From assembly GCA_034520665.1 (NCBI GenBank), contig JAXHNJ010000002.1, positions 480,660 to 544,659 of the forward strand: 64,000 nucleotides of DNA. The letters run 5' to 3'. The stretch is from Patescibacteria group bacterium (GTDB lineage: Bacteria > Patescibacteriota > Patescibacteriia > JAXHNJ01). Each line of letters starts with the position of its first letter. Within the stretch, counting starts at the first letter, position 1. Of this stretch, positions 960 through 44,086 are shown one piece after another. Made by a program: the position numbers and the translations under genes. A model generated the notes under the pieces. That model searched no databases. It was not told where the DNA came from and was given only the letters and a program-made list of their open reading frames with translations.

Positions 960-985
960 TTTTAAATTATTGGATTATTGAAGAA

Positions 986-1825: not shown

Positions 1826-1896
1826 TCTGTACCACTAAAGGGTACAGGATTAGCCGCGAACCCTTTAGTGGTTCACGGCAGTTCCACCACGTTTGC
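1826..1896 (-). repeat. leader of GIY-YIG ORF: degenerate tRNA-Leu 5-prime fragment plus 11-bp-stem hairpin
   Basis: Minus strand GCAAACGTGGTGGAACTG resembles tRNA-Leu GCGGACGTGGCGGAATTG. It is followed by inverted repeat CCACTAAAGGG...CCCTTTAGTGG enclosing a T-loop-like GGTTCGCGGCTAATCC. Confidence 0.6.
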
Positions 1897-5731: not shown

Positions 5732-5775
5732 AGACAGAATATATTATTAGTTTTTAAATATTTATTATTTCTTGG

Positions 5776-5902
5776 CGTTCACACGCCCCCCGCCTTCTTC
5801 TTCAATGTAACTCAATAATTAAGAGGGTAAACTTCGCCCCTACCTCCTAATAGCTTATCTGCCGTAGTCCACTAGGATGCAGGCAGGAAGGCGTAGTGCG
5901 CC
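5776..5902. ncRNA. GC-rich candidate structured RNA (unassigned)
   Basis: About 55% GC island in roughly 30% GC surroundings. No ORF. Contains CAGGCAGGAAGGCG and GGCG-TTCACA-CGCC hairpins. Could not be matched to SRP, tmRNA or RNase P RNA by eye. Confidence 0.25.
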
Positions 5903-6072
5903 CGACCCCTCCACATTTTATCTCTCCGCTAAACTAAGCGTTTAGTTATTATTTTTAAATGATTGTTTTTCAATGCGCCTGGTCTCCCTGCGGGAGACGA
6001 CCCCCATTTTACCGGTCCGCTAAACTAAAGGTTTAGTCATTATTTTTAAGTGATTGTTTTTCAATGCGCCTG
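5903..6072 (-). repeat. two tandem 85-90 bp units, each a degenerate 3-prime fragment of tRNA-Ile(UAU) plus about 50 bp trailer
   Basis: Unit 1 (5903-5982) lacks the T-arm. Unit 2 (5983-6072) has the T-arm replaced by GTCTCCC-TGC-GGGAGAC. Both end in GCGCCTGG (the tRNA acceptor 3-prime strand) with conserved trailer CCGCTAAACTAA.GGTTTAGT.ATTATTTTTAA.TGATTGTTTTTCAATGCGCC. Confidence 0.8.
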
Positions 6073-6137
6073 GATGGACTTGAACCATCGACCCCCACTT
6101 TATAAGAGTGGTGCTCTAACCACTGAGCTACAGGCGC
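6065..6137 (-). tRNA. tRNA-Ile (anticodon TAT)
   Basis: GCGCCTG acceptor stem, anticodon stem CCACT/AGTGG, loop CTTATAA, T-loop TTCAAGT, discriminator A, no CCA. Confidence 0.8.
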
Positions 6138-6295
6138 GAGATATTATTTACTTATTAATTTATTAATATAATTTCTCTTCTTTCTTGATTTGAAGTATTT
6201 TTCTCTTTTTATGGATTTTATAAAAAATATAAACAAAAAAACTAAACCAAGTCAAAAATTAGTTTAGCAGAGATTTTTCCTAAAATCAAATTAGT

Positions 6296-7240
6296 TTACT
6301 CTGATATTTCTTTAGGTTTTTTTCTTTGGAAGATTCTCAGTATTTTTGATAAACCCTCGCCTTTAGAAATCGATTCAAAAAGATAAGTCCAAACGCTGAA
6401 GCGGAAAGTAGCAATTAAAGAGCCAACAAAAATTATAATAGCCATGAAAATAGCGTAGCCCCAAGCAGTAAAAGGCAGGCTTAAAAAGGTGAGAACAGAA
6501 ACTATAACAAAAGTAATAACAAAATTTATCACATAAAGCAGTATGGCATTTTCTAAAGTAATGAGCCAGTTTTTACGAAAGAGATGAAAACTTGTTTTAA
6601 TAGAAGCTTTAATTTTTTCTCCGTTTAAAATCACATTAATAGTGGCGTATCTGACCAAAAATGAGATAAAAATATTTAAGGGTATAAGAATAATAAAAGC
6701 AAATACACTTAAGGTGGTGAGAGTACCTGTGCTTCCGGAATTAACGTAAGAAATAGCCAAAGGAATGCCAATAACTAAGAGTAATCCGTAGATTATAGCT
6801 TTGGCAATAAGATTTATAATTAATATAGGCCAGAATTTTTTTGTGCCGATAAAAAATCCGTCTAAAAAAGCGACACTCTTTTTCTTTTTAAAACGATGAG
6901 CCGCACTGATTATAGCTACTTGTGAAATAGTTATTAAATAAACCGCAGCCGCAGCAATAATTATACCAACTAGTACAACCAAAATAGAAGAAAAAACATT
7001 TTTAGTAAAAAAAGTGTTTAAATTTTCCGAAACTATCGAAAAAACACCCTCATTTAAAGTGTTACGCAGATTTTTGATAACTCTTTCTAAATTAGTTACT
7101 GTATCAATATTTCTGATAATAATATCATACTCTTCTCCATTAGCGGTTAAAGAGGCAAAAATACCAAAAAACCAAAGAAACTTCAGCTTTTTAGTTGTTG
7201 TCCAGGCTTTTTTTATTATTTCACGGTAAAAAATTTTCAT
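6296..7240 (-). CDS. polytopic membrane protein, unknown function
   Basis: ORF track. Six or more hydrophobic segments. No recognised motif. Confidence 0.55.
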   Translation of the reverse strand: MKIFYREIIKKAWTTTKKLKFLWFFGIFASLTANGEEYDIIIRNIDTVTNLERVIKNLRNTLNEGVFSIVSENLNTFFTKNVFSSILVVLVGIIIAAAAVYLITISQVAIISAAHRFKKKKSVAFLDGFFIGTKKFWPILIINLIAKAIIYGLLLVIGIPLAISYVNSGSTGTLTTLSVFAFIILIPLNIFISFLVRYATINVILNGEKIKASIKTSFHLFRKNWLITLENAILLYVINFVITFVIVSVLTFLSLPFTAWGYAIFMAIIIFVGSLIATFRFSVWTYLFESISKGEGLSKILRIFQRKKPKEISE

Positions 7241-7281
7241 CTAATTTTCCCTCCGATTATTATGCTGTTATTATACAATAG

Positions 7282-9135
7282 TTATTTTTTTGAAGCAAGT
7301 TCCTTTTTTCTTTTTTTATCTTTGAAAAAAAATTCAAATTTTTTCTTTTCGATAGTTTCTTTTTCTAATAATTCCTTTACAATTTTATTAAGAGTCTTTT
7401 TTTCTTTACTTATAATTTTCCTGGCCTTTTTATAAGCCTCAGCAATAATTTTTGAAACTTCATTATCTATTTTTTCAGCAATTTTTTCTGAATAATCCTT
7501 TTGGTCGTGAATTTCTTTGCCTAAAAAAACCAATTCGTCTTTTTTACCAAAAGTGCGGGGCCCTAAGGCTTCACTCATACCAAATTGAGTGACTAATTTT
7601 TTGGCTAATTCAGTAGCTTTTTTTAAGTCATTACTGGCCCCGGTAGTAATTTCGTTAAAAGTTTCTTTTTCGCAGGTAAAACCAGCTAAAAGGACAGTAA
7701 TATCTTCAATAAATTCAGAACGACTGTGTAAATTTTTATCCTCTAGAGGTAGTTTTAAAGTATAGCCAGCAGCTCGGCCTCTGGAAATGATCGAAATTTT
7801 GTGAACGGGATCTGTATTTGGCAATAAATGGGCCACTAAAGCATGGCCAGCTTCGTGATAAGCAGTAATTTTTTTCTCTTTTTTAGACAAAATACGGCTT
7901 TTTCTTTCTGGCCCAAGCATTACCTTTTCAATGGATTCAAGACAATCTTCCATACTTATCTTTTTCTTATTTTTTTTAGCCGCTAAAATAGCAGATTCGT
8001 TTAAGAGATTAGCTAAATCAGCTCCGGAAAAACCAGGGGTCCTTTGGGCAATTTTTTTAAAGTCAACACTATCATCAAAGGGTTTTTTCTTAATGTGTAC
8101 TTTAAGAATAGCTTCACGACCTTTAATATCCGGCATATCAATAATTACCCGTCGATCAAAGCGACCCGGACGCAAAAGAGCTGGATCCAAAACATCAGGT
8201 CTATTGGTAGCCGCAATAACAATAACATTATCACCGGTTTCAAAACCGTCCATTTCTACTAAAATTTGATTTAAGGTTTGTTCTCTTTCATCATGTGATC
8301 CACCTAAGCCAGCTCCTCTTTGGCGGCCAACAGCGTCCATTTCGTCAATAAATATTATACAAGGAGAGTTTTTTTTGGCTTTTTTAAAAAGGTCTCGCAC
8401 TCTTGAGGCTCCGACGCCAACAAACATTTCTACAAATTCAGAACCTGATATATTAAAGAAAGGCACATTAGCTTCACCGGCTACCGCTTTAGCTAAAAGA
8501 GTTTTACCCGTGCCGGGTGGCCCGACAATAAGCATACCCTTGGGAATACTAGCTCCAATAGTTAAAAACTTTTTGGGATGTTTCAAAAAATCAACGATTT
8601 CTTCCAATTCATCCTTAGCTTCTTTGACGCCAGCTACATCCTTGAAAGTAGTTTTCTTTTTTTTATTTTTTAAATTTGCTTCGCGAGCAGTGCTTTTGCC
8701 AAAAGAAAGGGCTCTGTTATTGCCACCCTGTACTTTACGCATAGTAAACCAAATAAAGCCAACAATAAGCAAAAAAGGCAGTAAAAAAGGCAATAAAGTA
8801 GCCAGCCAAAAAGAGAGACCAGATTCATCTTTAATAGTCAATTTTATTTTTTCAAGCTTAGATTGTTCAACACCGAAATTTTGCATTAGTTCTGAAAATG
8901 ATTCAGTAGTTTCTTTTTGACTAGTATATTTTTTATCTTCCATAGTAGTAATTTCCAATTTGTTGCCACCGCTAACTACTATTTCTTTAACTCTCTCATT
9001 TTTTATTATTTCAACTAACTTTGAAATATCTATTTTTTCAGACTGGTCAAGACCTGGATTAAAAAGACTTAAGACAGCAGCAAAGGCCAGGAAAATAAAG
9101 ATAAATATTATTATTTTTTTACCAATGTCTTTCAT
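7282..9135 (-). CDS. ftsH: ATP-dependent zinc metalloprotease FtsH
   Basis: N-terminal TM anchor, Walker [12 protein letters not shown] region, HEAGHAL zinc-binding motif. Confidence 0.95.
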
Positions 9136-12570: not shown

Positions 12571-15135
12571 ATGCCAAGAAAAAAAAGCAAGAAAAAGTCC
12601 GCAAAAAATAAACCAGGCGGCCAAAAGAAAAAAACTAGTAAAAAAAATACTCAAAATAAGAAAAAGAAAAAAAGCCTCCCAGAAGAAAAGATTAATCAAA
12701 TCGGTAAATTAAAAGAACAGTCAATTGTTGAAGAGATGCAGACTTGTTATTTAGATTATGCTATGTCGGTTATTGTAGCCAGGGCCTTGCCAGATGTACG
12801 CGACGGTTTAAAACCGGTTCACCGCCGTATTTTATACGCTATGTGGAAAATCGGTTTACACGCTGGAGCAAAGTTTAGAAAATCAGCCACTGTGGTCGGT
12901 GAAGTTTTAGGTAAATATCATCCTCATGGTGATGTGGCTGTTTATGATACTTTAGTGCGTCTGGCCCAGCCTTTTTCTATGAGATATCCTTTGGTAAACG
13001 GCCAGGGTAATTTTGGTTCAATTGACGGAGATAATGCGGCTGCTATGCGTTATACAGAGTCAAAACTGCAGAAGATAGCGGGAAAAATGTTGGTTGACAT
13101 TGAAAAAGAAACAGTGGATTTTGTCCCTAATTATGACGGTACTCATAAAGAACCGGTAGTTTTACCGGCTAAGCTGCCTAATTTTTTATTAAATGGCACT
13201 ATTGGTATCGCCGTGGGTATGGCTACTAATGTACCACCGCATAATTTAACAGAAATAATTAATGCTACTATTCATCTTATTGAAAAGCCAAAAGCAGATG
13301 TAGAAGACTTAATGGAATTTGTTAAAGGACCGGATTTTCCCACTGGCGGTATTATTTATAACTTTGAAGATATTAAACAGACCTATGCGACTGGTAAGGG
13401 CGGAATTGTAGTCAGAGCCAAGGCTGAAATTGTTGAGGATAAAATAAATAAATTTAAAATAATAGTAACAGAAATCCCCTACCAAGTTAATAAATCTACT
13501 TTGTTGGAAAAAATAGCTGATTTAGTTAAGGACAAAAAGCTAGGGGGTATTAGCGATTTGCGTGATGAATCTGATAAAGACGGCATCCGTATTGTAATAG
13601 AGTTGAAAAAAGATGCTTATCCCAAAAAGGTTTTGAACCAACTTTTTAAACAAACTCAGCTTCAAACTAAGTTCCATGTTAATATGTTAGCCTTAGTTGA
13701 TCGGATACAACCGAGAGTGCTGAGCCTGAAAATGGTTTTAGAAGAGTATATTAAACATCGCCGAGAAATAGTAAAAAGACGAACTGAATATGAATTAAAG
13801 CAGGCCAAGGCACGAGCTCATATTTTAGAAGGTTTAAAAATTTGTCTGGCTAAAATTGACGCTGTTATTAAATTAATTAAAAAATCAAAAGACAAAGAAA
13901 AAGCGGCCAAAGCTCTGATTAAAAAGTATAAACTAACTGAAATTCAAGCTAATGCTATTTTAGAAATGAAACTGCAGCAATTATCCGGACTGGAAAGAAA
14001 AAAGATTCTGGACGAATTAAAAGAAAAGAAAAAATTAATTAAAGACTTAAAAGGTATTCTAACTTCCAAAAATAAAAAAATGAATATCATTAAGAAAGAA
14101 TTGGAAGAAGTTAAGGAAAAATATGGTGATGAGAGAAAAACTAAGGTTGTCTCCAGTGCTATTGATAAATTTAGCCAGGAAGATCTTATTCCTAAAGAAG
14201 CTATCATGGTTATGGCTACTCGTGACGGGTATATTAAAAGAATTGCTCCCACTTCTTTTAAAAAACAGAGCCGGGGCGGCAAAGGAGTAATTGGTTTGAC
14301 TACCAAAGAAAAGGATACAGTTTCAACATTTTTTTCCACTAATACTCACGCTGACCTCCTCTTCTTTACCAGTAAAGGAAAGGTTTTTCAGCTCAAAGCT
14401 TATGACTTACCAGTAGCCTCTCGCCAAGCTAAAGGTCAATCTATAGTTAATTTTTTACAACTAGATTCAACTGAAAAAGTATCATCTATTTTACCCTTGG
14501 ATGAATTACAAGGTTATAAATATTTAATGATGGCTACAAGAAAAGGAGTAATTAAAAAAGTTAATATTGAATCCTTTGCTAAAATACGACGTTCTGGTCT
14601 TATTGCTATTCGATTGAAAGAAAAAGACCAACTAGAGTGGGTCAAGCCTTCAACTGGCAAAGATGAAATAATTTTGGCCAGTGAAAAAGGCCAAGCTATA
14701 AGATTTAAAGAAAAAGATGTGCGTGCCATGGGCCGTTCAGCGGCTGGTGTTAGAGCTATTAAATTAAAAGAAGAAGATGAAGTTTCCGGCATGGATATGA
14801 TTAATCAAAAAAGTAAAGTTACTGATTTGCAGTTGATTACAGTTATGGGTAAGGGTTATGGCAAGCGTACTAATTTAAGCAGTTATAAAGTGCAAAGACG
14901 AGGTGGAGTGGGTATAAAAACATCTAAGGTAAGTGATAAAACCGGTAAAATTATTGCTGCTTTTATAGTTGATAAAAATTTGGAAAAAGAAGATTTGATT
15001 ATAGTCTCTGAAAAAGGGCAGGTTATTCGCCTGGCTTTAAAAGAAGTGCCAGCACTTAACCGAGCCACCCAAGGGGTTAAGTTAATGCGTTTTTCAGACC
15101 AAAGCGACCGGGTGGCTTCAGTTACTTTTATTTAA
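12571..15135 (+). CDS. gyrA: DNA gyrase subunit A with Lys-rich N-terminal extension
   Basis: [17 protein letters not shown], catalytic Tyr region, GyrA-box-like QSRGGKG in the C-terminal beta-pinwheel. Confidence 0.92.
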
Positions 15136-17072: not shown

Positions 17073-17765
17073 ATGAGAAATTTTGCCAAGCTTGAAAAAA
17101 AAATAGATTATAGATTTAAAAATAAAGAGCTTCTTAAACAGGCTCTTGTTCACCGCTCTTATCTTAATGAAAATCCAGACTTTCCTCTACCTCATAATGA
17201 ACGTCTGGAATTTTTAGGTGATGCGGTTATTGAATTAGTGGTCACTGTTTTTTTATTTAAAAATTATCCCAATCCTGAGGGAGATTTAACCAACTTTAGA
17301 GCTAGTTTAGTTAATACCAAAATGCTGGCCCAGAGAGCTCGGGAGCTTGATCTGGAAAAATATCTTTATTTAAGTAAGGGTGAAGCCAAAGACAAAAATC
17401 AAAAAGCCCGTCAGAGTATTTTAGCCAATACTTTTGAATCAATGGTCGGAGCTATTTATCTCGATCAGGGGTTTAAAAAGGCTAATAAATTTATTACCGA
17501 AAATTTATTACAAGAATTTCCTAATATCTTAAAGGAAAGATTATATATTGATGCTAAGAGCCGATTACAAGAAATTGTTCAGGATAAGGTGGGAGTGACC
17601 CCGGAATATAAAGTTTTAAAGGAATGGGGTCCGGATCATAGCCGAAAATTTAATATTGGCGTGTTTTTTGGTAAGGAATTAGTAGCTGAAGGAGTGGGCA
17701 GCTCGAAACAGGAGGGCCAGATGAAAGCCGCTGAAAAAGCTTTAATTAAAAAAGGATGGCAATAA
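17073..17765 (+). CDS. rnc: ribonuclease III
   Basis: ERLEFLGDAVIEL signature plus C-terminal dsRBD. Confidence 0.93.
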   Translation: MRNFAKLEKKIDYRFKNKELLKQALVHRSYLNENPDFPLPHNERLEFLGDAVIELVVTVFLFKNYPNPEGDLTNFRASLVNTKMLAQRARELDLEKYLYLSKGEAKDKNQKARQSILANTFESMVGAIYLDQGFKKANKFITENLLQEFPNILKERLYIDAKSRLQEIVQDKVGVTPEYKVLKEWGPDHSRKFNIGVFFGKELVAEGVGSSKQEGQMKAAEKALIKKGWQ

Positions 17766-27500: not shown

Positions 27501-27882
27501 ATATACACTAGTTTAAATAGGTCGAAATTAGACTAAAATTAAATAAAAAGGAACAAAAAATTCATCAAATTTAACCAAGTACATTTAAACAAATAGGAGA
27601 AAAAACAGTGATCTCTAAGTTGTATTTGGAGCTCTCTGTTTTTTCTTCAAATTTTAAAAGGAAAAAAAGAACTTTGACAACTAAAATGTGACAGAAAAAT
27701 GGGTTTTTTGAAATTCCTTTTTAGGAAAAGTAAGTGGTGGAAATTAAGAGGATAAGATTAGGATCAAATATAATCTTAAATATAGATTTTTTTTGATGCA
27801 TCTTGTTTTAGCCTTTCAATTTCCACCACTTGCCAACAAAAAAATATTTTTTTCGAGGATTTATTTTAAAATCCTCAATCCA

Positions 27883-29459
<1,577 letters not shown>

Positions 29460-29552
29460 TAGGGAGTAAAATTATTGGGCTTAAAAACCCAAAATTAAGT
29501 CGGACCCATTATATTCTGTCACTTTTTAGTTGTTAAAGGTATAAAATCACGG

Positions 29553-29579
29553 CCGGACTTGAAAAATCCGGTCTTTTTT
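29553..29579 (+). terminator. hairpin CCGGA-cttgaaaaa-TCCGG plus T6 downstream of 16S
   Basis: Stem-loop followed by TCTTTTTT. Confidence 0.5.
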
Positions 29580-29679
29580 GGTAAATTATATTATATTATT
29601 AGCTAAAAATAGACGGCTATTTCCGATGTTTTGACAAAGTCAAATATCGTAACTCAACACTTATTAACAATCAAAAATT

Positions 29680-29881
29680 TTTTAAAAGTAAATAATAATA
29701 TAATAAAATTTTGGGCGGCTAGTCCCGTTCCGTCGCTTGGCGACAGAACGCGGATCCTCGACCCATAGGGTCGGGACTCAGCTCTTGTAAAACCAAATAT
29801 CTTTTTAAAAGTAAATAATAATATAATAAAATTTTGGGCGGCTAGCTAAGCTGGTTAGAGCGTCTCACTGACCCGCCTGCC
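29680..29881 (+). repeat. two direct units: 43-bp tRNA-Ile leader plus tRNA-Ile 5-prime fragment
   Basis: TTTAAAAGTAAATAATAATATAATAAAATTTTGGGCGGCTAG at 29680-29722 and 29803-29845. Unit 1 carries a 54-nt insertion after position 10. Unit 2 carries tRNA positions 1-36 and then CCCGCCTGCC. Confidence 0.85.
29723..29776 (+). mobile_element. 54-nt mini-element with terminal inverted repeats TCCCG/CGGGA and core GGATCCTCGAC, inserted at position 10/11 of a tRNA-Ile pseudo-copy
   Basis: Second copy at 1012-1064 in opposite orientation relative to its host tRNA-Ala pseudo-copy. Same insertion point TAG^CTCAG. Confidence 0.55.
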
Positions 29882-29950
29882 AAAGTACGAAACCTTATAA
29901 ATTCTTGTTCTTATTTATATAATTACATAGCATTATTTTCCTTTGATGGT

Positions 29951-30027
29951 GGGCGGCTAGCTCAGCTGGTTAGAGCGTCTCACTGATAATGAGGAGGTCG
30001 AAGGTTCGAGTCCTTCGCCGCCCACCA
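29951..30027 (+). tRNA. tRNA-Ile (anticodon GAT)
   Basis: GGGCGGC acceptor stem, anticodon loop CTGATAA, T-loop TTCGAGT, CCA encoded. Confidence 0.92.
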
Positions 30028-30065
30028 TCAGTTGATAATTAAAAAATACTTAGTACGGCGGGTAG

Positions 30066-30107
30066 ATAATGAGGAGGTCGTCTCCAGAAGGGAGACCGTG
30101 CCACCAA
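30066..30107 (+). repeat. tRNA-Ile(GAU) 3-prime fragment copy with T-arm replaced by GTCTCC-AGAA-GGGAGAC hairpin
   Basis: GATAATGAGGAGGTCG-hairpin-CCGTGCCACCA. Confidence 0.75.
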
Positions 30108-30306
30108 GTCGTTTCCGAGTAACCTGGCTCACCAATATTTTAAAAATATCGCAAAGGACATTACATATTTATTTTCCCAGTTGCCGAGACCTAAAAAAGC
30201 CGAGATAGCTCCCCGTCATTCCACGGGGTAAGCAGTGGTAGACCTGCCCGCAATGCCGAGCAAATATAAAGTATATTAAAATATAAAGATAGAGTCTGTC
30301 TCTGGG

Positions 30307-30381
30307 GCCTGGGTAGCTCAGTGGTAGAGCGAAGGACTGAAAATCCTTGCGTCACCAGTTCGATTCTGGTCCCAGGCACCA
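30307..30381 (+). tRNA. tRNA-Phe (anticodon GAA)
   Basis: GCCTGGG acceptor stem, anticodon loop CTGAAAA, T-loop TTCGATT, CCA encoded. Leader TCTGTCTCTGG pairs with trailer CCAGAGGCAGA. Confidence 0.92.
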
Positions 30382-30413
30382 GAGGCAGATTATATTGTTA
30401 ATTGTTTAAGCGT

Positions 30414-30510
30414 TGCTTGGCGGGTGGAGCGAAGGACTGAAAATTTTACCCCGCCCTTGAGTGAAAACGAATAGTGCGAGGCCTTGCGTCACCAGTTCTG
30501 CGACTTTGGC
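30414..30510 (+). pseudogene. degenerate tRNA-Phe copy with 37-nt insertion in the anticodon loop and truncated D-arm
   Basis: GGAGCGAAGGACTGAAAAT + [TTTACCCCGCCCTTGAGTGAAAACGAATAGTGCGAGG] + CCTTGCGTCACCAGTTC, then diverges. Confidence 0.7.
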
Positions 30511-30525
30511 TGAGGTTAGTTTAGT

Positions 30526-30573
30526 CCCGGATGTAGCTCAGTCGGCTAGAGCGCTTGCTTTGGCCCGCCTGCC
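30526..30573 (+). repeat. orphan tRNA 5-prime half (ends in anticodon loop TTTGG) joined to CCCGCCTGCC
   Basis: CCCGGATGTAGCTCAGTCGGCTAGAGCGCTTGCTTTGG then CCCGCCTGCC. The same 10-mer follows the tRNA-Ile 5-prime half at 29872-29881. Confidence 0.7.
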
Positions 30574-30581
30574 TTGACTGA

Positions 30582-30655
30582 CGGGGTATAGCGAAGTTGG
30601 CTATCGCGCCTGCTTTGGGAGCAGGAGATCGTCGGTTCAAGTCCGACTACCCCGA
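30582..30655 (+). tRNA. tRNA-Pro (anticodon TGG)
   Basis: C1:G72 acceptor stem CGGGGTA/TACCCCG, anticodon loop TTTGGGA, T-loop TTCAAGT, discriminator A, no CCA. Confidence 0.85.
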
Positions 30656-30666
30656 TAGCTAAGGCA

Positions 30667-30760
30667 GTCGGGCGGGGAGCAGGAAATCGCGAGTTTGAGT
30701 CTCACATTCCCGACTTAGAGAGAAAAGGTTGTCTCCCAAAGGGAGACGGCCACGACCAAG
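30667..30760 (+). repeat. D-armless tRNA-Pro-like 3-prime fragment followed by GTCTCCC-AAA-GGGAGAC hairpin
   Basis: GTCGGGCGGGGAGCAGGAAATCGCGAGTTTGAGTCTCACATTCCCGAC, then AGGTTGTCTCCCAAAGGGAGAC at 30727-30747. Confidence 0.6.
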
Positions 30761-30790
30761 CGGGTATAGTATAGTGGATTATTATACTAC
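30760..30790 (+). repeat. partial tRNA-Gly(UCC) 5-prime copy (positions 1-30)
   Basis: GCGGGTATAGTATAGTGGATTATTATACTAC versus the gene GCGGGCGTCGTATAGTGGCTATTATGCTAC. Confidence 0.7.
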
Positions 30791-30811
30791 TAAATATTTC
30801 TTAACGAGTAA

Positions 30812-30883
30812 GCGGGCGTCGTATAGTGGCTATTATGCTACCCTTCCAAGGTAGAAACGCCGGTTCGATTCCGGTCGCCCGCT
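30812..30883 (+). tRNA. tRNA-Gly (anticodon TCC)
   Basis: GCGGGCG acceptor stem, anticodon loop CTTCCAA, T-loop TTCGATT, discriminator U, no CCA. Flanked by 13/14 inverted repeat TTCTTAACGAGTAA / TTATTCGTTAAGAA. Confidence 0.88.
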
Positions 30884-30951
30884 TATTCGTTAAGAAGCCA
30901 ATAAATAAATTTGTAGATATTAAGAAAAGGTTCTGCGCCCAAGGTGCATTT

Positions 30952-30982
30952 GTCTCTGACGGAGACTCCGGTCGCCCGCTCC
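30952..30982 (+). repeat. GTCTC-TGAC-GGAGAC hairpin fused to copy of tRNA-Gly 3-prime end (TCCGGTCGCCCGCT)
   Basis: Same architecture as the Ile-UAU and Ile-GAU fragment copies. Confidence 0.7.
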
Positions 30983-31043
30983 AAATTTTATTTAGAAGTA
31001 GGCTATTAAATACTAACTTTAATAAAGTATATTAAAAATTAAA

Positions 31044-31132
31044 GCCGGGATGGCGGAATTGGTATACGCGCTGGACTTAAAATCCAGTGGTGCTCATACA
31101 CCTTGTGGGTTCGAGTCCCACTCCCGGCACCA
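31044..31132 (+). tRNA. tRNA-Leu (anticodon TAA), long variable arm
   Basis: GCCGGGA acceptor stem, anticodon loop CTTAAAA, 16-nt variable arm, T-loop TTCGAGT, CCA encoded. Confidence 0.9.
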
Positions 31133-31241
31133 TTTCTTCGCTCCTCTAGAACTTCGGAGGGTAAACGGCTAACTTGTTCTACGTAGTCTTGGCCCAGTAA
31201 GATTACCGGCATCAAATAATTTTAAAAAATAAAATATAAAA

Positions 31242-31460
31242 ATGAAAAAAATAATAAAAGGTATTTTATTTTCTAGCCTTTTTTTTCTTATTCTACCCAA
31301 AGTTAGTTTAGCTTATTTAGACGCTGGCTCTGGTAGTTATGTAATTCAGATAGTAATTGCTATTTTGGCCGGTGGCGCTTTTGCTATAAAAATATTTTTT
31401 CGTCAGATAAAAAGATTTTTTACTAAAGTTTTTTCTCGGAAGGATAAAAATGATAAATAA
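31242..31460 (+). CDS. small secreted/membrane protein (72 aa)
   Basis: Signal-peptide-like N-terminus and a second hydrophobic helix. Confidence 0.4.
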   Translation: MKKIIKGILFSSLFFLILPKVSLAYLDAGSGSYVIQIVIAILAGGAFAIKIFFRQIKRFFTKVFSRKDKNDK

Positions 31461-32835
31461 GGAAAATAAAATAAAAATAGCCACTAGTTCATTTCGTGAC
31501 CCTAGTGGTTTTGTTTTTTTTGAGGATAAAAAAGTTTATCGTCAAGTAAATCAGTCATATAAAAATATTTATGACTCTATCAAAGAATCGGGGTTATATG
31601 AAGAGTTAATAAAAGAAAATTTATTAATAAATTTTCAAGAAGTTGATGGACCAGTAGCTGAAAAATCACCAGTTTATAAAATTCTTAAAGTAAACAAAGT
31701 TCCCTTTATTTCCTATCCTTATGAATGGTGCTTTAGCCAATTAAAAGAAGCCGCTTTATTAACCTTAAAAATACAAAAAAAAGCTTTAAAGCAGGGTTTT
31801 TCTTTAAAGGATGCTAGCGCTTACAATATCCAGTTTTATCAAGGGAGGCCCATTTTTATTGATATTCTGTCTTTTGAAAAATATGAAGAAAAACCCTGGA
31901 TAGCCTACAGACAATTTTGTCAGCACTTTCTAGCTCCTCTTTCTTTAATGTCTTTAAAAGATCATCGGCTAAATTTTTTAACCAAGGAATTTATTGATGG
32001 TATTCCTTTAGATTTGGCTAGTTCAATTTTACCCAAAAAAAGTTACTTTAAATTTTTACTATTAAGTCATATTCACTTTCATGCTCGTGGCCAAAAATAT
32101 TATGCTGACAAAGAAATTAAAAATCAGCAGAGGAAAATGAGTAAAAAATCATTAATGAACCTATTAAAGAGTTTAGAATCAGCGGTTACTTCGTTAAATT
32201 GGAAGAATCAAGATACGGAATGGGCTGCTTATTATAAGAATACTAATTATACAAAAAAAGCCTTTGACCATAAGAAAGAAATTGTAAAAGAATTTATTAA
32301 AAAAATAAACCCAAAAAATATCTGGGATTTAGGCGCTAATAACGGTATTTTTAGTTTATTGGCTTCGAAAAATAATGTCTATACAATAGCTATTGATAAT
32401 GACGCAGCCGCCATTGAAAGTGCTTATAATTATATAAAAAAGAAAAATATTAACAATATTTTGCCCTTAGTTATTGATTTAACTAATCCTAGCAGCAGTA
32501 TCGGCTGGCAAAACAAAGAAAGACAAACTTTGATCGAAAGGGGGCCATCTGATTTAATTATGGCTTTAGCTTTAGTTCATCACTTAGCTATATCTAACAA
32601 TACTCCTTTTATTATGATAGCCCAATTTTTTAGTTCTATGGGGAAAAATTTAATTGTGGAATTTGTGCCGAAAAAAGACACAAAAGTCAAAAAATTATTA
32701 AGTACTAGAAAAGATATTTTTTCTGAATATAATCAAGATAAATTTGAAGAATCTTTTAAAAAATATTTTTCTATTATACAAAAAGATAAAGTGAAAGAAT
32801 CGGAAAGAATACTTTATTTAATGAAAAGAATATGA
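31450..32835 (+). CDS. hypothetical protein with C-terminal class I SAM-dependent methyltransferase domain
   Basis: DLGANNGIFSLLA motif I and later acidic motif II. N-terminal 250 aa unassigned. Confidence 0.55.
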   Translation: MINKENKIKIATSSFRDPSGFVFFEDKKVYRQVNQSYKNIYDSIKESGLYEELIKENLLINFQEVDGPVAEKSPVYKILKVNKVPFISYPYEWCFSQLKEAALLTLKIQKKALKQGFSLKDASAYNIQFYQGRPIFIDILSFEKYEEKPWIAYRQFCQHFLAPLSLMSLKDHRLNFLTKEFIDGIPLDLASSILPKKSYFKFLLLSHIHFHARGQKYYADKEIKNQQRKMSKKSLMNLLKSLESAVTSLNWKNQDTEWAAYYKNTNYTKKAFDHKKEIVKEFIKKINPKNIWDLGANNGIFSLLASKNNVYTIAIDNDAAAIESAYNYIKKKNINNILPLVIDLTNPSSSIGWQNKERQTLIERGPSDLIMALALVHHLAISNNTPFIMIAQFFSSMGKNLIVEFVPKKDTKVKKLLSTRKDIFSEYNQDKFEESFKKYFSIIQKDKVKESERILYLMKRI

Positions 32836-38338: not shown

Positions 38339-38415
38339 TGGAGCGAGAGAGGGGACTCGAACCCCCGACCTTCTCCTTGGCAAGGAGATGTTCTAGCCAA
38401 CTGAACTACTCTCGC
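38339..38415 (-). tRNA. tRNA-Gly (anticodon GCC)
   Basis: GCGAGAG acceptor stem, anticodon loop TTGCCAA, T-loop TTCGAGT, discriminator U, CCA encoded. Confidence 0.9.
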
Positions 38416-38634
38416 ATATTTATTAATACTGTAATATTTATTATAAACGGCGGCGGGCCGGTTGGCAAGGAATATATTTTTAACAACTGTCAGCCAGAGG
38501 CCGATCCGCTTTGTCTGCCACAGGCAGGCTTTGGTGGAGACTACTGCCGTAAAAATCTAAGTCTACGGGTGGGACCTCCCGCTCCTTGATTTATTATTTC
38601 GCAAGGAATGGCGGGATCTCGCCATTAAGACAGG

Positions 38635-38657
38635 AGAACCGGCGAATAGAGGTTTTG
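38635..38657 (-). repeat. partial duplicate of tRNA-Cys 3-prime half (GAACCGGCGAATAGAGGTTTTG)
   Basis: 22/22 identity to 38711-38732. Copy begins immediately 3-prime of the anticodon. Confidence 0.8.
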
Positions 38658-38687
38658 TCCCGATTTCTCCAAAATTTTGAAGTTAAG

Positions 38688-38762
<75 letters not shown>

Positions 38763-39066
38763 ATGGCTTCAAAATTTTGTTGAGAAATCGAGGATCCTCG
38801 CAAAAGTACTAGTATATAAAATATTTATTTCATCATTGCGGGACAGACCCCCGCCTAGACTTTACTCCGTCAAATGACGGAGATTTGCTTGCCCCACGAA
38901 GCTTAAAAGCGAAGTGGGGGCTTATGTGGCCGTGAAAATTATAACTGGCGGAGCCGACTCTGTTGCCTAACGGAATGGCCGCGAAAAAATTGGTGGAGAC
39001 TATTTTATATAGAAGACATAAATAACTTTTTAAATATTAACAAATTTTGATTATTTTTTCAAGAGT

Positions 39067-43319: not shown

Positions 43320-44086
43320 TTATATCTCAATCTGCATCAAATCTTTGGCTAAAACAATTGGGCCTTTATAGGTTTTCTGGGCTTGTTTTTTAAGATCGTA
43401 TTTTTCACATTCCGGATAAAAATGTGTTAAAACTAATTTTTTTACTTTTGCTTTGGAAGCAATTTTGCCAGCTTGGGAAGGAGTTAAATGGCTTTTAACT
43501 TTATTTTGATTGGGCATGCTACTTTCAATTAATAGTAAGTCCGTATTTTTTGAAATTTCCAATAGGCTTTTCGGATAGTCAAAACATATATCTCCGGCGT
43601 AAACCATTGATTTTCCTTTATATTCAATACGATAAGCGACGGCGTAAGGAGAAAAAGTATGGCCTTGTTTCCAGGTATAGACTGATTTTACTTGGAAATT
43701 CTTCGCTTTGTAGGTTAAATTATGCATTTCTTTAATCTTTAACTTAAAACAAAAGTACTCCGTATATTTAGGAAAAAATGCCTCCCCATTTTTTTGATAA
43801 ATCCTTTTATTTTTTTAGGACCGAGTAAAACAATTTCACGATTGGTTTGTCTGACCCACCAATTCCAAAAAAGAGCCGGTAGATCGGCCACATGATCGAC
43901 ATGTGTGTGGGTAATTAAAATATAATTTATTTTTGTGTCATCATAGCCGGCATCTATAATATGCTCTTTGGTCCCGGAGCCAGCGTCCATTAAGATTAAA
44001 TCTCGGCCAATCTCCAGGAGATAACCGGGTTCATTTCTTTTGGTTGAAGGATCAGTTGTGCCCGATCCTAGAATGGTTAGTTTCAT
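43320..44086 (-). pseudogene. MBL-fold metallo-hydrolase (RNase Z-like) split into two ORFs by a frameshift near 43728-43740
   Basis: ORF 43739-44086 carries THTHVDHV (HxHxDH). ORF 43320-43727 carries the C-terminal half. Frames differ by 2 nt with an 11-nt gap. Confidence 0.6.

Follow-up and report, generated by a model that had tools for sequence, protein, structure and literature searches.

Broken tRNA copies downstream of a Patescibacteria 16S rRNA gene are best read as nested scars of homing-type elements bearing replacement tRNAs

Downstream of a 16S rRNA gene of a Patescibacteria group bacterium, intact tRNA genes alternate with pieces of tRNA genes, and two different 5' halves are joined to the same 10-mer. 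What broke these copies, and why mostly in or beside the anticodon loop? The original prediction, made on the same 64,000-nt stretch of DNA (hereafter the window), proposed that the junctions were not random and that tRNA-targeting integrases, group I introns and split-tRNA systems did not fit cleanly; both points stood, but the likely agent, a GIY-YIG nuclease, had not been reached. We propose that the array is probably a layered record of repeated tRNA-gene invasions by one small mobile-element family. The broken copies are most likely scars of elements with a GIY-YIG nuclease gene and paired hairpins, and the best reading of the whole is that of nested scars of homing-type elements bearing replacement tRNAs.

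Five intact tRNA genes follow the 16S gene, as had been predicted; they were located with ARAGORN and Rfam.

27882-29458, plus strand, 16S rRNA gene (Rfam SSU_rRNA_bacteria, 1399 bits)
29951-30027, plus strand, intact tRNA-Ile(GAU)
30307-30381, plus strand, intact tRNA-Phe(GAA), enclosed by a leader/trailer helix
30582-30655, plus strand, intact tRNA-Pro(UGG)
30798-30896, plus strand, leader/trailer inverted repeat with intact tRNA-Gly(UCC) at 30811-30884
31044-31132, plus strand, intact tRNA-Leu(UAA)

No 23S gene was found anywhere in the 64-kb window. The window also encodes RNase III (17073-17765). Helices formed by leader and trailer surround the Phe, Pro and Gly genes of the array (z -3.6 to -6.4) and were absent around debris-free tRNAs in the same duplex test. 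The Phe duplex has an energy of -16.9 kcal/mol (z -4.3), and the Gly inverted repeat, I2, is 21 nt long and 95% complementary (duplex z -6.4). The GC content of the debris is 0.40, in a genome of about 30% GC.

The partial copies listed in the original prediction are all present where it placed them, and more exist: it had missed 29723-29776, 30152-30246 and 30726-30758. The Ile and Phe side of the array is composed as follows.

29679-29722, plus strand, dead Ile copy A, a 34-nt leader and tRNA-Ile nt 1-10 (direct repeat)
29723-29776, strand not assigned, ORF-less double-hairpin element, TCCCG-hairpin-GGATCC-hairpin-CGGGA (fold)
29802-29871, plus strand, dead Ile copy B, the leader of copy A and tRNA-Ile nt 1-36 (sequence alignment)
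29872-29950, plus strand, left part of the Ile insert, with CCCGCCTGCCaaaGTAC at its start, then AT-rich filler, and at its end the intact tRNA's leader
30028-30062, plus strand, trailer of the Ile insert, with 3' end GTACGGCGGG (30053-30062)
30065-30106, plus strand, old Ile 3' half (nt 35-50 exact)
30152-30246, plus strand, old tRNA-Phe 5' pieces of ancestral type (acceptor GCCGAGA), ending in CTG
30247-30306, plus strand, left part of the Phe insert, which starts with CCCGCAATG, followed by an AT-rich stretch and the leader (alignment with the Ala and Cys element starts)
30414-30510, plus strand, tRNA-Phe pseudogene with a 37-nt insert (30445-30481)

The two dead Ile copies share a 44-nt direct repeat (29679-29722 and 29802-29845, 100% identical). 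Copy B breaks after the second anticodon base, and its tRNA part (29836-29871) matches intact Ile at 35 of 36 positions. The 54-nt double hairpin lies exactly between Ile nt 10 and 11, without target duplication; it folds as two adjacent hairpins (z -4.5), is about 80% identical to copies in the relative L083, and matches in design and tRNA position both the element at 1012-1064 and many loci in other genomes. The Ile insert is bounded by inverted ends, GTACGGCGGG being the inverted repeat of the CCCGCC...GTAC at its start. Its junction was found in two relatives, as cactga followed by CCCGTCCTGAG in L089 and as cactga, with cttg before TCCCGCACC, in L088. In the old Ile 3' half a 17-nt hairpin, GTCTCCagaaGGGAGAC, takes the place of the 17-nt T arm and is followed by a decayed acceptor strand and CCA.

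The old Phe 5' pieces contain a D-loop hairpin (30212-30228) and are identical to intact Phe of L083 at 12 of 12 positions, versus 6 of 6 aligned to the window's own Phe; the block as a whole is about 84% conserved in L083. The AT-rich part of the Phe insert resembles the 5' end of a GIY-YIG gene, which is suggestive only, and a GIY-YIG profile found nothing significant at 30247-30306. In the Phe pseudogene, nt 21-38 (30427-30444) and nt 39-55 (30482-30498) are both exact and are separated by the 37 nt; the insertion, predicted to lie exactly in the anticodon loop, is real but lies at the loop's 3' edge, at the loop/stem boundary, with a junction ambiguous by 1 nt. It folds no better than shuffled sequences (z +0.7), and L083 has a homologous insert (14637-14688, 83% identical).

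The Pro, Gly and Leu side has a similar composition.

30527-30563, plus strand, old tRNA-Pro 5' half of ancestral type, with its break after the anticodon (alignment to relatives)
30564-30581, plus strand, left arm of the Pro insert, CCCGCCTGCCTTGACTGA, which pairs with 30656-30672
30656-30672, plus strand, right arm of the Pro insert, TAGCTAAGGCAGTCGGG, the pairing partner of the left arm
30675-30714, plus strand, old tRNA-Pro 3' half, from anticodon to acceptor end
30726-30758, plus strand, a further, older Pro-like 3' end, with GTCTCCCaaaGGGAGAC in place of the T arm, ending in CGACCA
30760-30790, plus strand, old tRNA-Gly 5' piece of ancestral type (alignment to relatives)
30933-30983, plus strand, old Gly 3' part, with the piece 30952-30983 within it
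31022-31044, plus strand, AT-rich 23-mer (repeat D12), 91% identical to 30266-30288 of the Phe insert

The arms of the Pro insert form a helix coaxial with the acceptor stem (duplex -35.1 kcal/mol, fold z -4.9). The old Pro 5' half matches intact Pro of L083 at 29 of 31 positions and the window's intact Pro at 27 of 35; for the old 3' half the scores are 34/40 with L086 and 30/38 with the window's own gene. The homologue of the older Pro-like 3' end in L083 has a TCCCGCCttcgGCAGGA hairpin at the corresponding place. The old Gly 5' piece (28/31 with L086 intact Gly, 25/30 with the window's own) breaks in the anticodon stem and not in the loop; over the array, breaks concentrate in or beside the anticodon loop, in line with the predicted clustering. 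The old Gly 3' part consists of a decayed anticodon arm, a hairpin, GTCTCtgacGGAGAC, replacing the 5' side of the T arm, and the acceptor 3' strand with CCA. The AT-rich 23-mer may be what is left of the first codons of a GIY-YIG gene; at the syntenic spot in L083, upstream of tRNA-Leu, a recognisable GIY-YIG N-terminal remnant is found, MFIVYILKSLKDNRSYVGYSKNL.

The shared 10-mer, CCCGCCTGCC, occurs exactly twice in 64 kb (29872-29881 and 30564-30573), each time directly after a tRNA 5' half, as had been noticed. With one mismatch allowed there are three matches versus 0.61 expected, and none of 100 shuffles reached three. The third, at 30663-30672 on the minus strand, forms an inverted pair with the Pro copy: in the Pro insert, CCCGCCTGCC pairs with GGCAGTCGGG beyond the intact tRNA. 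The 10-mer appears to be the conserved 5' end of one sub-family of inserts with inverted ends, CCCGCC.../...GGCGGG, which bears out the view that the junctions did not arise by random decay. The Ile and Pro inserts start with CCCGCC, not with the TCCCGA found elsewhere, and have no GGATCC; their membership in the element family is by resemblance. In this anatomy the intact tRNAs lie inside the inserts, so that the halves are remains of older resident genes.

Relatives that share the gene order TrmD, MFS transporter, 16S, Ile-Phe-Pro-Gly-Leu (16S identity 91%) have kept the tRNA order with very different amounts of debris. In L086 and L090 the array has short AT-rich spacers (GC 0.25-0.29), and in the window, L083, L088 and L089 the debris is GC-rich. 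Fixed, identical debris with no associated elements, which would have spoken against the original prediction, was not what the relatives contained, since their debris differs strongly and associated elements exist. L083 and L084, assembled from independent samples, differ by 1 nt over a debris-laden array. The presence/absence differences among relatives are direct observations, as are replacement alleles: the old Pro, Gly and Phe pieces resemble working genes of the relatives more closely than do the working genes of the window itself, the opposite of what simple duplication and decay predicts. The window's intact Pro shares only 81-82% identity with its counterparts in L083 and L086 and appears to be a divergent replacement allele. 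The intact Ile and its immediate flanks are orthologous to those of L086 (89%), and here internal duplication would explain the data as well as import. For the Phe pseudogene with its insert and for the block 30152-30211, conservation is about 84% in a relative whose 16S identity is 91%, a hint of selection or lateral co-conversion and not of plain junk.

The focal array contains no recognisable GIY-YIG ORF, and a profile search of it found nothing significant; the link to GIY-YIG therefore rests on architecture, end motifs, the remnant in a relative and other loci of the window. The broken-tRNA pattern is also present at four other tRNA loci of the window, of which that at tRNA-Ala(UGC) serves as reference.

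489-1064, minus strand, reference element at tRNA-Ala(UGC) (repeats, Pfam match)
1012-1064, minus strand, the oldest of the Ala copies, carrying a double hairpin at nt 10/11
904-959, minus strand, leader and Ala nt 1-36
892-903, minus strand, TCCCGATGCGCA
632-898, minus strand, intact GIY-YIG ORF, 88 aa
614-629, minus strand, TGCGCATCGTGGATCC
523-618, minus strand, second leader copy and intact tRNA-Ala
508-522, minus strand, trailer and GGGAC
489-507, minus strand, old 3' piece from nt 37
1559-1834, minus strand, second GIY-YIG gene, directly 5' of tRNA-Leu(GAG) (profile E 8e-20)
5896-6251, minus strand, tRNA-Ile(UAU) locus, with a GIY-YIG remnant (6147-6251, E 2e-4) and the intact tRNA (6065-6137)
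38339-38900, minus strand, tRNA-Cys(GCA) and tRNA-Gly(GCC), layout as at Ala (z -10.6)

The Ala locus reads, in order, old 5' half, TCCCGA, ORF-enclosing stem, GGATCC, and then leader, complete tRNA, complementary trailer, TCGGGA and old 3' half. Its ORF matches Pfam PF01541 (E 4e-17), has the family-conserved Y13, Y24, R34 and H38, and is flanked by two 56-nt copies of leader plus Ala nt 1-36 that are 100% identical. Only three GIY-YIG matches exist in the 64 kb, all directly 5' of tRNAs. The second GIY-YIG gene is preceded by an old Leu 5' piece carrying a D-loop insert. On the 3' side of tRNA-Ile(UAU) lie two tandem units of old 3' half and trailer (5974-6010 and 5896-5919), and in the first of them the T arm is swapped for GTCTCCCgcagGGAGAC. 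At Cys the order is old Cys 5' half, a segment beginning TCCCGCAATG, GGATCC, leader, tRNA-Cys, trailer, GGGAC and Cys nt 34-55 (38636-38657). Between Cys and Gly the window has a spacer of 272 nt, where L083 and L086 have 11 and 19 nt, respectively.

The anatomy recurs in other genomes. A same-strand tRNA lies within 200 nt of 64 of 80 related GIY-YIG loci, and partial tRNA copies are present at 51 of the 80. Breaks fall most often after anticodon base 2 (10 cases), with pieces starting at base 3 in 7 cases. TCCCG upstream and GGATCC downstream of the ORF are both present in 27 loci. The ORF-enclosing stem, which buries the start codon, varies in sequence and keeps its pairing (11.4 bp versus 6.8 bp for arms taken from different loci). 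Loci L029 and L036 have the order 5' half, GIY-YIG gene, full tRNA, 3' half; their 3' halves are 100% identical to the tRNA, and the 5' half of L029 is 94% identical. L036 also has a tRNA-Glu with hairpin sequence inside its anticodon loop, and both halves of this gene are 100% identical to the intact copy. ORF-less double hairpins, that at 29723-29776 among them, occupy the D, anticodon and T loops of dead tRNA copies, and some protein genes are targets as well. Two element copies in one MAG are 92% identical, with flanks of 60-67% identity overall and 72-80% in the nearest 100 nt, which suggests recent copying. Insertion into tRNA genes with a spare tRNA seems common across Patescibacteria, and we found no published description of elements that do so.

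The complete form, as at Ala, comprises two back-to-back hairpin modules, each closed by TCC...GGA: one enclosing the gene of a stand-alone GIY-YIG nuclease of about 85 aa, of Slx1/UPF0213 type, the other a complete tRNA gene whose leader pairs with its trailer. The element sits in the anticodon loop of a resident tRNA gene, mostly after the second anticodon base, and so splits it into a 5' and a 3' half on either side, while the tRNA it carries would take over the resident's function. We infer nuclease cleavage, mobility and a copying route as follows. The nuclease would cut the uninterrupted tRNA gene, and repair would copy element, spare tRNA and some flank from the occupied copy, that is, homing with co-conversion. 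As the incoming tRNA would itself be a target, the process could be repeated and yield nested halves. Old halves would then decay by losing segments and gaining MITE-like ORF-less hairpins in D, anticodon and T loops (MITEs are miniature ORF-less transposon derivatives), and the nuclease gene would usually be deleted; in the focal array the ORFs are gone, with only ends, hairpins and halves remaining. Several points count against this scheme. The GIY-YIG domain of about 85 aa has no obvious DNA-binding module, and bacterial Slx1-like proteins were earlier read as vertically inherited housekeeping genes (PMC1564403). Homing would give no account of ORF-less hairpins entering sites without flanking homology or target duplication, of a whole tRNA within the second hairpin, or of the length-for-length replacement of T arms by one common hairpin.

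Tandem duplication and decay, in which slippage or unequal recombination in a repetitive cluster made rotting partial copies, and hairpins and 10-mer are incidental or come from palindrome-forming repair at breaks, is unlikely. It is favoured by the tandem direct repeats of leader and 5' half, by the tandem units of 3' half and trailer after tRNA-Ile(UAU), and by the Ile locus, with its 35/36 match and its orthology to L086. However, break positions coincide across different tRNAs and many genomes, the junction families TCCCGA, GGATCC, TCGGGA and CCCGCC are conserved across genera, the freshest examples contain a nuclease gene, old pieces resemble relatives' working genes more than current genes do, and the debris is GC-rich (0.40) within a genome of about 30% GC. 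A mis-joined repetitive cluster would explain why an independent Logan contig (SRR26473340) breaks within tRNA-Leu near window position 31104, and why in L082, the closest relative, the contig stops 50 nt past the 16S gene; an artefact is nonetheless extremely improbable, as L083 and L084 agree but for 1 nt on an equally debris-laden array, the architecture recurs in dozens of MAGs from different projects, and the repeats are short (up to 56 nt), mostly diverged and within a 698-kb contig.

Integrase-borne islands are very unlikely. Phage-like or integrative elements with tyrosine or serine recombinases would have integrated repeatedly, each time restoring the tRNA and displacing a fragment, and lost their cargo later. 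As Williams reportedly described in 2002, anticodon-loop integrases leave attL/attR as an intact tRNA followed by a 3' fragment starting in the loop, and such fragments are present for Ile, Cys, Ala and Pro. Yet neither the 40 ORFs of the window scanned with Pfam nor the array-flanking ORFs with Pfam records yielded a domain of an integrase, recombinase or transposase, 5' halves with leaders are duplicated as often as 3' halves, inserts measure only 100-400 nt, and in fresh examples from many genomes the GIY-YIG gene is the only ORF between the halves. We also doubt a reading in which the hairpin inserts and halves are not scars but serve a function as RNA, be it that double hairpins are removed from precursor tRNAs, intron-like or via RNase III, or that leader/trailer helices and conserved debris are selected processing or expression signals. 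In favour of such a reading, stems covary, the stem around the ORF buries the start codon, an RNase III gene lies in the window, the interrupted tRNA-Glu of L036 has perfect halves, some debris is 84% conserved across genera, and in CPR rRNA genes there are insertions that encode GIY-YIG proteins and belong to neither group I nor group II introns (PMC11270868). Against this, each interrupted copy seen is accompanied by an adjacent intact partner, most interrupted copies are visibly decayed (arms missing, T arms swapped, acceptor strands mismatched), no Rfam family matched, and the 37-nt Phe insert has a z of +0.7 against shuffles. The original prediction had already judged integrases, group I introns and split-tRNA systems a poor fit, and we agree: there is no recombinase among the 40 scanned ORFs, no Rfam intron reached threshold in the search, and every broken tRNA has an intact partner.

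How do the proposed nested, tRNA-bearing elements compare with known systems? Archaeal split, permuted and multi-intron tRNAs are broken at or near 37/38 and in other loops and have complementary flanks. The breaks in the anticodon region and other loops and the complementary leaders and trailers are alike; unlike them, no bulge-helix-bulge was seen at the junctions here, the halves, for each of which an intact partner gene exists, are decayed, and we know of no splicing endonuclease in the bacterial host. MITEs and IS200/IS605-type elements insert precisely, without target-site duplication, and their ends are defined by hairpins and not by conserved terminal repeats. The double hairpins described here share these traits and resemble non-autonomous derivatives of the form that has the ORF, but there is no HUH or other transposase, the sole linked protein is the GIY-YIG nuclease, and the targets are tRNA loops. 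Tyrosine-integrase elements reportedly target tRNA genes, often in the anticodon loop, restoring the gene and leaving a fragment as direct repeat (Williams is said to have reported this in Nucleic Acids Res in 2002). Insertion within a tRNA gene, restoration by incoming DNA and a displaced fragment are shared, whereas here no recombinase was found, the inserts are 0.1-0.4 kb with hairpin ends and not att cores, and a whole tRNA or a 5' half with leader may be carried instead of a 3' part. Paquin, Laforest and Lang reportedly described, in 1994 and 2000, free-standing GIY-YIG/LAGLIDADG genes of fungal mitochondria that carry a replacement gene end (Allomyces atp6), and mobile double-hairpin elements in those mitochondrial DNAs. 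In both cases a nuclease gene enters an essential gene and does not kill it, as a duplicate brought along replaces the displaced part, a pseudo-fragment is left, and short double hairpins occur in the same genomes. The Allomyces-type targets are organelle protein genes, in contrast to bacterial tRNA genes and some protein genes; here a complete gene is nested in the element hairpin, and the GIY-YIG branch is different.

The GIY-YIG insertions of CPR rRNA genes, mostly at the top or base of stem-loops, were judged sparse and probably not spread by homing (PMC11270868). They share the phylum, GIY-YIG ORFs in structured-RNA genes and a nature that is neither group I nor group II intron, but were described for rRNA genes only, with no mention of tRNAs and no replacement-gene architecture (PMC11270868). 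The tRNA gene cluster of phage T4 encodes SegB, a homing endonuclease of the GIY-YIG family. It recognises a motif of the tRNA T loop and promotes its own spread, and that of adjacent tRNA genes, to related phages (PMC2330249). A free-standing GIY-YIG gene among tRNA genes, spread with neighbouring tRNAs by break repair, and a recognition site built on a conserved tRNA motif are the points of likeness (PMC2330249). SegB is a larger phage protein with a 27-bp T-loop-based site, unlike the minimal domain of about 85 aa, of Slx1/UPF0213 type, on bacterial chromosomes; particular to the latter are the break in the anticodon loop, the paired-hairpin bounds and the halves around a nested replacement gene.

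Downstream of the 16S gene, ARAGORN and Rfam both found the five intact tRNA genes of the original prediction. Partial copies were located by repeat finding and by BLAST of every window tRNA against the window; each copy claimed previously was found again, and the array contains more tRNA pieces than had been listed. Remains of earlier resident tRNA genes are hereafter called old or dead, and intact tRNAs working.

Features of the tRNA array
27882-29458, + strand, 16S gene (Rfam)
29679-29722 and 29802-29845, 44-nt unit of leader plus Ile nt 1-10, two copies, 100% identical
29836-29871, extension of the second Ile unit to Ile nt 36, 35/36 identical
29951-30027, + strand, intact tRNA-Ile-GAU (ARAGORN, Rfam)
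30065-30080, exact second copy of Ile nt 35-50
30307-30381, + strand, intact tRNA-Phe-GAA (ARAGORN, Rfam)
30427-30444 and 30482-30498, exact copies of Phe nt 21-38 and nt 39-55, with 37 nt between
30527-30563, Pro-type 5' half
30582-30655, + strand, intact tRNA-Pro-UGG (ARAGORN, Rfam)
30675-30714, Pro-type 3' piece
30760-30790 and 30952-30983, Gly pieces
30811-30884, + strand, intact tRNA-Gly-UCC (ARAGORN, Rfam)
31044-31132, + strand, intact tRNA-Leu-UAA (ARAGORN, Rfam)

The Phe pseudogene carries the expected 37-nt insertion, at the 3' edge of the anticodon loop and not exactly in the loop as had been proposed. Similarly, the Gly 5' piece is present and ends in the anticodon stem, not in the anticodon loop. 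The 37-nt Phe insert folded no better as a hairpin than shuffled sequences. The 10-mer CCCGCCTGCC, said to follow two different 5' halves, has exactly two copies in the 64 kb, directly 3' of the Ile and of the Pro-type halves (with one mismatch, three matches were found in the 64-kb window vs 0.61 expected). At gathering thresholds Rfam returned only the 16S gene and the intact tRNAs in the whole window; the fragments matched no intron, ribozyme or tRNA-like family, either in that search or at E values up to 10 (29400-31300).

Other features of this region were observed. The window has no 23S gene after the 16S gene (27882-29580 region). An extended AT-rich hairpin lies near the 16S 3' end (about 29338-29385), and the spacer from this gene to the tRNAs holds a terminator-like hairpin and its T run (29553-29579), conserved in the related loci L083 and L086 (L-numbers designate loci from other genomes). 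The motif CTTTGGCTGAGG(n)TAG, similar to the start of a Phe-type tRNA (GCYGAGGTAG), is present in the debris of three tRNA loci (30506-30517; 63606-63625, - strand; about 38495-38510, - strand).

At the tRNA-Ile gene the order is old 5' half (to nt 36), CCCGCCTGCCaaaGTAC, AT-rich filler, leader, intact tRNA-Ile and a trailer ending with GTACGGCGGG (30053-30062), the old 3' half starting at 30065. At the tRNA-Pro gene it is old 5' half, CCCGCCTGCCTTGACTGA, intact tRNA-Pro, TAGCTAAGGCAGTCGGG and old 3' half, and the arms CCCGCCTGCCTTGACTGA and TAGCTAAGGCAGTCGGG pair (-35.1 kcal/mol, z -4.9), the resulting helix being coaxial with the acceptor stem. Because of these two layouts, CCCGCCTGCC is identified as the conserved 5' end of one sub-family of inserts. 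Leader/trailer helices also enclose tRNA-Phe (z -4.3) and tRNA-Gly (z -6.4); none was found at debris-free tRNAs (such as Val-GAC, Val-UAC and the tRNAs of relatives with compact arrays). The Ile junction is common to more distant relatives, with related ends: L089 has cactga/CCCGTCCTGAG, and L088 has cactga/ with cttg ahead of TCCCGCACC (slashes mark junctions). The Phe insert starts with CCCGCAATG, similar to the start of the Cys element, TCCCGCAATG, and continues with an AT-rich stretch resembling the first codons of a GIY-YIG nuclease gene of the window; a 23-mer of this stretch is found again 5' of tRNA-Leu. Such AT-rich stretches of the array, too short for significance, are suggestive of GIY-YIG ORF remnants; a GIY-YIG profile run against the six-frame translation of the window gave nothing significant within the array. 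In old 3' halves the 17-nt T arm is swapped, length for length, for a common hairpin.

Hairpin GTCTCC-n4-GGGAGAC in place of the T arm
30080-30096
30731-30747
5982-5998

Old 5' and 3' halves of the array were also considered as parts of spliced working tRNAs; this was rejected, as their acceptor strands are unpaired, their T arms are replaced and intact copies exist.

Partial copies also adjoin several other tRNAs of the window (BLAST of window tRNAs). Nucleotides 34-55 of tRNA-Cys have an exact second copy just downstream of the gene, and tRNA-Ile(UAU) is followed by two tandem units of 3' half plus trailer. For tRNA-Ala-UGC, nt 1-36 have an exact second copy 340 nt upstream of the gene and nt 37-50 are found again just downstream; two identical 56-nt copies of leader plus nt 1-36 lie on either side of an 88-aa ORF, which encodes a GIY-YIG nuclease. 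A profile built from homologues gave three matches in the whole window, each directly 5' of a same-strand tRNA. GIY-YIG domains are thus found at the Ala, Leu-GAG and Ile-UAU loci, and the array downstream of the 16S gene has possible remnants only.

GIY-YIG sequences of the window
632-898, - strand, GIY-YIG nuclease ORF, 88 aa (PF01541, E 4e-17)
635-916, profile match
1559-1834, profile match
6147-6251, profile match, remnant

The tRNA-Ile with anticodon UAU (6065-6137, - strand; Rfam score 76.5 bits) is of an uncommon kind for bacteria, in which AUA is usually read by a lysidine-modified CAU tRNA and not by a tRNA whose UAU anticodon looks unmodified. The window also encodes RNase III and a CCA-adding enzyme (17073-17765 and 3203-4735), the former being a candidate cutter of the long leader/trailer helices around nested tRNAs. 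Elsewhere (43320-44086, - strand), each of two adjacent ORFs, 135 and 115 aa long, corresponds to one half of a metallo-beta-lactamase-fold domain, which suggests a split or frameshifted gene.

Residues Y13, Y24, R34 and H38 do not vary among 34 homologues of the protein encoded at 632-898, and at least 90% of them have E70; the homologues are mostly 78-118 aa long, without extra domain. The closest solved structures to the 34-homologue profile are the uncharacterised UPF0213 proteins 1zg2 (E 7e-13) and 1ywl (E 1e-10), followed by chains of the structure-specific nuclease SLX1 (E 2e-6). Because of this kinship with SLX1, sequence comparison suggests that the nuclease would recognise DNA shape, for example the hairpin or cruciform loops of tRNA genes. 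A 2006 survey described the bacterial members as minimal GIY-YIG domains that are inherited vertically (PMC1564403).

The anatomy of the element, a proposed small mobile insert made of a GIY-YIG nuclease gene, paired hairpins and a complete tRNA, was read from the window Ala locus together with L003, L024, L029 and L038. The order is nt 1-35/36 of the old tRNA, ending ..TTTG; TCCCGA; the 5' arm of a stem, the GIY-YIG ORF and the 3' arm of the stem; TCGAGGATCCTCGA, a leader and the complete tRNA; a trailer complementary to the leader, TCGGGA, and the old tRNA from nt 36/37, starting CAA... The junction reads TTG/TCCCGA...TCGGGA/CAA, and the complete tRNA sits within the second hairpin of the element. 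The stem that encloses the ORF covers the start codon; it varies in sequence from locus to locus with its pairing kept (mean 11.4 bp, vs 6.8 bp for cross-locus arms). The old 3' halves of L029 and L036 are 100% identical to the nested tRNA, and the old 5' halves 94% and 100% identical, respectively.

ORF-less versions, 42-90 nt in length, consist of two adjacent hairpins, each closed by TCC...GGA (z -4.5, -5.0). A search of the collected loci for this pattern gave 82 matches, most counted on both strands, flanked by tRNA D arms (..tag/../ctcag), T loops (ggtt/../cgaatcc), anticodon loops and some non-tRNA sites. These hairpins are found at sites without flanking homology and without target duplication.

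ORF-less double hairpins in dead tRNA copies of the window
29723-29776, in the first dead Ile copy, cleanly inserted after nt 10 and before nt 11
1012-1064, tRNA position as in the Ile copy, oldest dead Ala copy

The element recurs across genomes. A scan with the nuclease alignment, using one genome per species, gave 80 loci, mostly from Patescibacteria, with some from Chloroflexota, Acidobacteriota and Bacteroidota. A same-strand tRNA lies at most 200 nt from the GIY-YIG ORF in 64 of the 80 loci; a tRNA is just downstream of the ORF in 53 loci and just upstream in 16, and partial tRNA copies are present in 51. Breaks have preferred sites, the commonest being after the second anticodon base (10 piece ends, matched by seven starts at the third base), in Ala and Glu tRNAs of many genomes; lesser modes are nt 26/27, nt 44/45, and the D and T loops. 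In nine tRNA-free loci, a plain hairpin stands where the element otherwise has its tRNA; tRNA-free elements are mostly at TTG^CAA-like sites in or between protein genes, with a duplicated gene start 3' of the element in three cases. One pair of loci from a single MAG, L006 and L008, is a case of recent copying: the element is 92% identical, the flanks 72-80% over the nearest 100 nt and 60-67% over 300-600 nt, as expected when a copy is recent and its co-conversion tracts are short.

Several arrangements were observed among these loci. In L006, L008 and L069 (about 2440-2860), the same GIY-YIG element lies inside small zinc-ribbon protein genes, after TG of the second Cys codon in a C-x-N-C-K motif (..AATTG^), and a second, diverged gene start follows it; in silico removal of the element from L006 leaves an open reading frame. 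In L053, L060 and L072 (about 2470-2800), TTG^CAA-like sites close to the 3' ends of protein genes hold the element, and its precise in silico removal gives back a longer reading frame; such insertions look simple and recent, with no duplicate to heal the gene. A mirrored order, intact tRNA, GIY-YIG gene and tRNA 3' part from nt 37 or nt 45, was observed in L067, L065, L075, L027, L043, L051 and L081, labelled Chloroflexota, Acidobacteriota or Bacteroidota; it is sometimes tandem, L067 having two ORFs and two 3' parts.

Relatives of the window, with about 91% 16S identity to it, were found with TrmD as handle. The order TrmD, 16S, tRNA-Ile is common to five related loci, some with an MFS transporter between TrmD and 16S, and the full order Ile-Phe-Pro-Gly-Leu with the Cys-Gly pair is also present in L083/L084 and in L086.

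Spacer lengths (nt) in the window and in two relatives
Window: 16S to Ile 492; Ile-Phe 279; Phe-Pro 200; Pro-Gly 155; Gly-Leu 159
L083: 16S to Ile 201; Ile-Phe 316; Phe-Pro 255; Pro-Gly 86; Gly-Leu 133
L086: 16S to Ile 173; Ile-Phe 66; Phe-Pro 142; Pro-Gly 37; Gly-Leu 74

The relatives therefore differ in load. The Ile-Phe spacer of the relative L090 is 42 nt, and the Cys-Gly spacer is 272 nt in the window vs 11 nt in L083 and 19 nt in L086. Spacer GC is 0.25-0.29 in compact arrays vs 0.40-0.51 in loaded ones (window, 0.40). By these spacer differences, occupied and empty sites exist among relatives that are of genus level and are not strains. In L083, dead Phe copies contain double hairpins, and upstream of tRNA-Leu a remnant can be recognised as the N-terminal part of a GIY-YIG gene; some debris of the window array is about 84% conserved with L083, at 91% 16S identity.

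Other searches gave little. The downstream methyltransferase (31450-32835), used as handle, belongs to a family spread across phyla (best match 62%, no synteny); an exact look-up of the protein gave one Logan contig, which begins within tRNA-Leu. For the MFS transporter an exact look-up gave no match, and a metagenome scan with the conserved spacer terminator motif TTGAAAAATCCRGTCTTTTTTG gave one match, the unrelated locus L087, by chance. The closest relative by TrmD, L082 (87% identity), stops 50 nt after its 16S gene; its 16S match is 1721 nt long (5702-7422) vs 1577 nt in the window, and this gene probably carries an insertion. In L083, a run of N (about 17230-17246; masked or scaffold gap) adjoins the tRNA-Gly/Cys pair.

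Old and working tRNAs differ in their relation to these relatives. The old Pro 5' half matches the working Pro of L083 at 29/31 positions vs 27/35 for the window's own gene, the old Pro 3' half matches L086 Pro at 34/40 vs 30/38, and the old Gly 5' piece matches L086 Gly at 28/31 vs 25/30. The old Phe 5' piece has the acceptor GCCGAGA, as in relatives, and the working Phe of the window starts GCCTGGG. The working Pro and Gly are only 73-82% identical to the genes of relatives. Duplicates that simply decay would be expected to diverge from the genes of relatives, and working copies to remain similar to them; the reverse is observed. Because the old pieces, not the working copies, stay close to relatives, the working Pro, Gly and Phe genes may have arrived with the inserts, and the allele pattern fits this. 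The exception is Ile: the old half is nearly identical to the working gene, which, with its immediate flanks, is orthologous to that of L086.

These observations can be placed in one sequence of events. The nuclease would cut an uninterrupted tRNA gene, and repair from an occupied copy would bring in the element with its spare tRNA; the latter would be open to renewed attack, giving nested halves. Halves would then decay and gather ORF-less hairpins, presumably because insertions there are not selected against, and the ORF would usually be lost. A stronger reading, tentative and rather unlikely, takes the elements as selfish cassettes that replace tRNA genes, a tRNA 'gene drive': a minimal Slx1-like nuclease would read cloverleaf-forming DNA of a tRNA gene by its shape and cut in a loop, and the element would install its own tRNA allele within a hairpin. 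The ORF-less double hairpins, as derivatives of the element, would then be insertions of a new class, which seek out loops in the structured-RNA genes of bacteria and may be excised from the RNA in the manner of intervening sequences. On this reading, Patescibacteria would exchange tRNA alleles horizontally in this way and, to judge from the loci found, so would Chloroflexota, Acidobacteriota and Bacteroidota.

Plain duplication followed by decay accounts for the tandem units; it leaves over the conserved junction families, the recurrent tRNA positions and the allele pattern, and is highly improbable. That the interrupted copies are functional RNAs or intron-like is quite doubtful: the stems covary, RNase III is encoded nearby and the halves of the interrupted copy in L036 are still perfect, but an intact partner was seen for every interrupted copy, and most of these are visibly decayed. 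Misassembly, named with the original prediction as a possible source of such an array, is unlikely as a general cause since the arrays of L083 and L084, from separate samples, differ by 1 nt only.

Replacement by a nuclease-carrying element would account for the GC-rich 'junk' around tRNA genes in Patescibacteria, whose genomes are small and otherwise have little spare DNA. It also points to a likely role for the stand-alone GIY-YIG (UPF0213/Slx1-like) proteins, which are abundant and uncharacterised and which annotation pipelines label 'GIY-YIG nuclease family protein'. Usually, tRNA genes are seen as stable vertical markers and passive integrase landing sites; the present results suggest that an element driven by a nuclease could replace them laterally. 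A practical consequence of the debris is that short-read assemblies break beside rRNA and tRNA genes; it can also mislead tRNA annotation and pseudogene counts. A very small nuclease that finds a tRNA-gene loop would be a possible structure- or site-specific tool.

As previously anticipated, integrases, group I introns and split tRNAs fit poorly. An integrase origin was rejected, as no recombinase domain was found in the 40 Pfam-scanned window ORFs and the duplicated 5' halves would be left unexplained: tRNA-targeting integrase islands duplicate only the tRNA 3' part, whereas 5' halves with leaders are duplicated here (29802-29871, 904-959, 30527-30563), and the present inserts are 100-400 nt long with the GIY-YIG gene as only ORF. 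No group I intron core was found, the best Rfam Intron_gpI match scoring 13.1 bits vs a gathering score of 50. In contrast with archaeal-type intron-containing or split tRNAs, the helix at the insert ends is, by inspection, wholly insert sequence, with no bulge-helix-bulge, and every interrupted copy has an intact partner gene. Unlike in MITE or IS200/IS605 elements, the Pfam-scanned window ORFs showed no transposase, whether HUH Y1 or of another type.

The element resembles free-standing GIY-YIG homing elements in its conserved catalytic residues, defined insertion site, occupied and empty sites and co-conversion gradient (one pair), and its nuclease resembles stand-alone Slx1/UPF0213-type proteins in having a single domain, similar to those of UPF0213 and SLX1. 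T4 SegB, which recognises a tRNA motif as a homing enzyme of the GIY-YIG type and takes neighbouring tRNA genes along (PMC2330249), is by analogy a direct precedent for the proposed tRNA-carrying GIY-YIG homing, and CPR rRNA genes hold GIY-YIG insertions other than introns (PMC11270868). No description of GIY-YIG/double-hairpin elements nested in bacterial tRNA genes was found in the full-text literature searched, whose coverage leaves out most subscription journals. Nuclease elements of homing type that bring a duplicate to heal their target are an already known kind; what looks new is that four traits come together: the target is a tRNA, a whole gene is nested in the element, the frame is a double hairpin, and the enzyme is minimal and Slx1-like.
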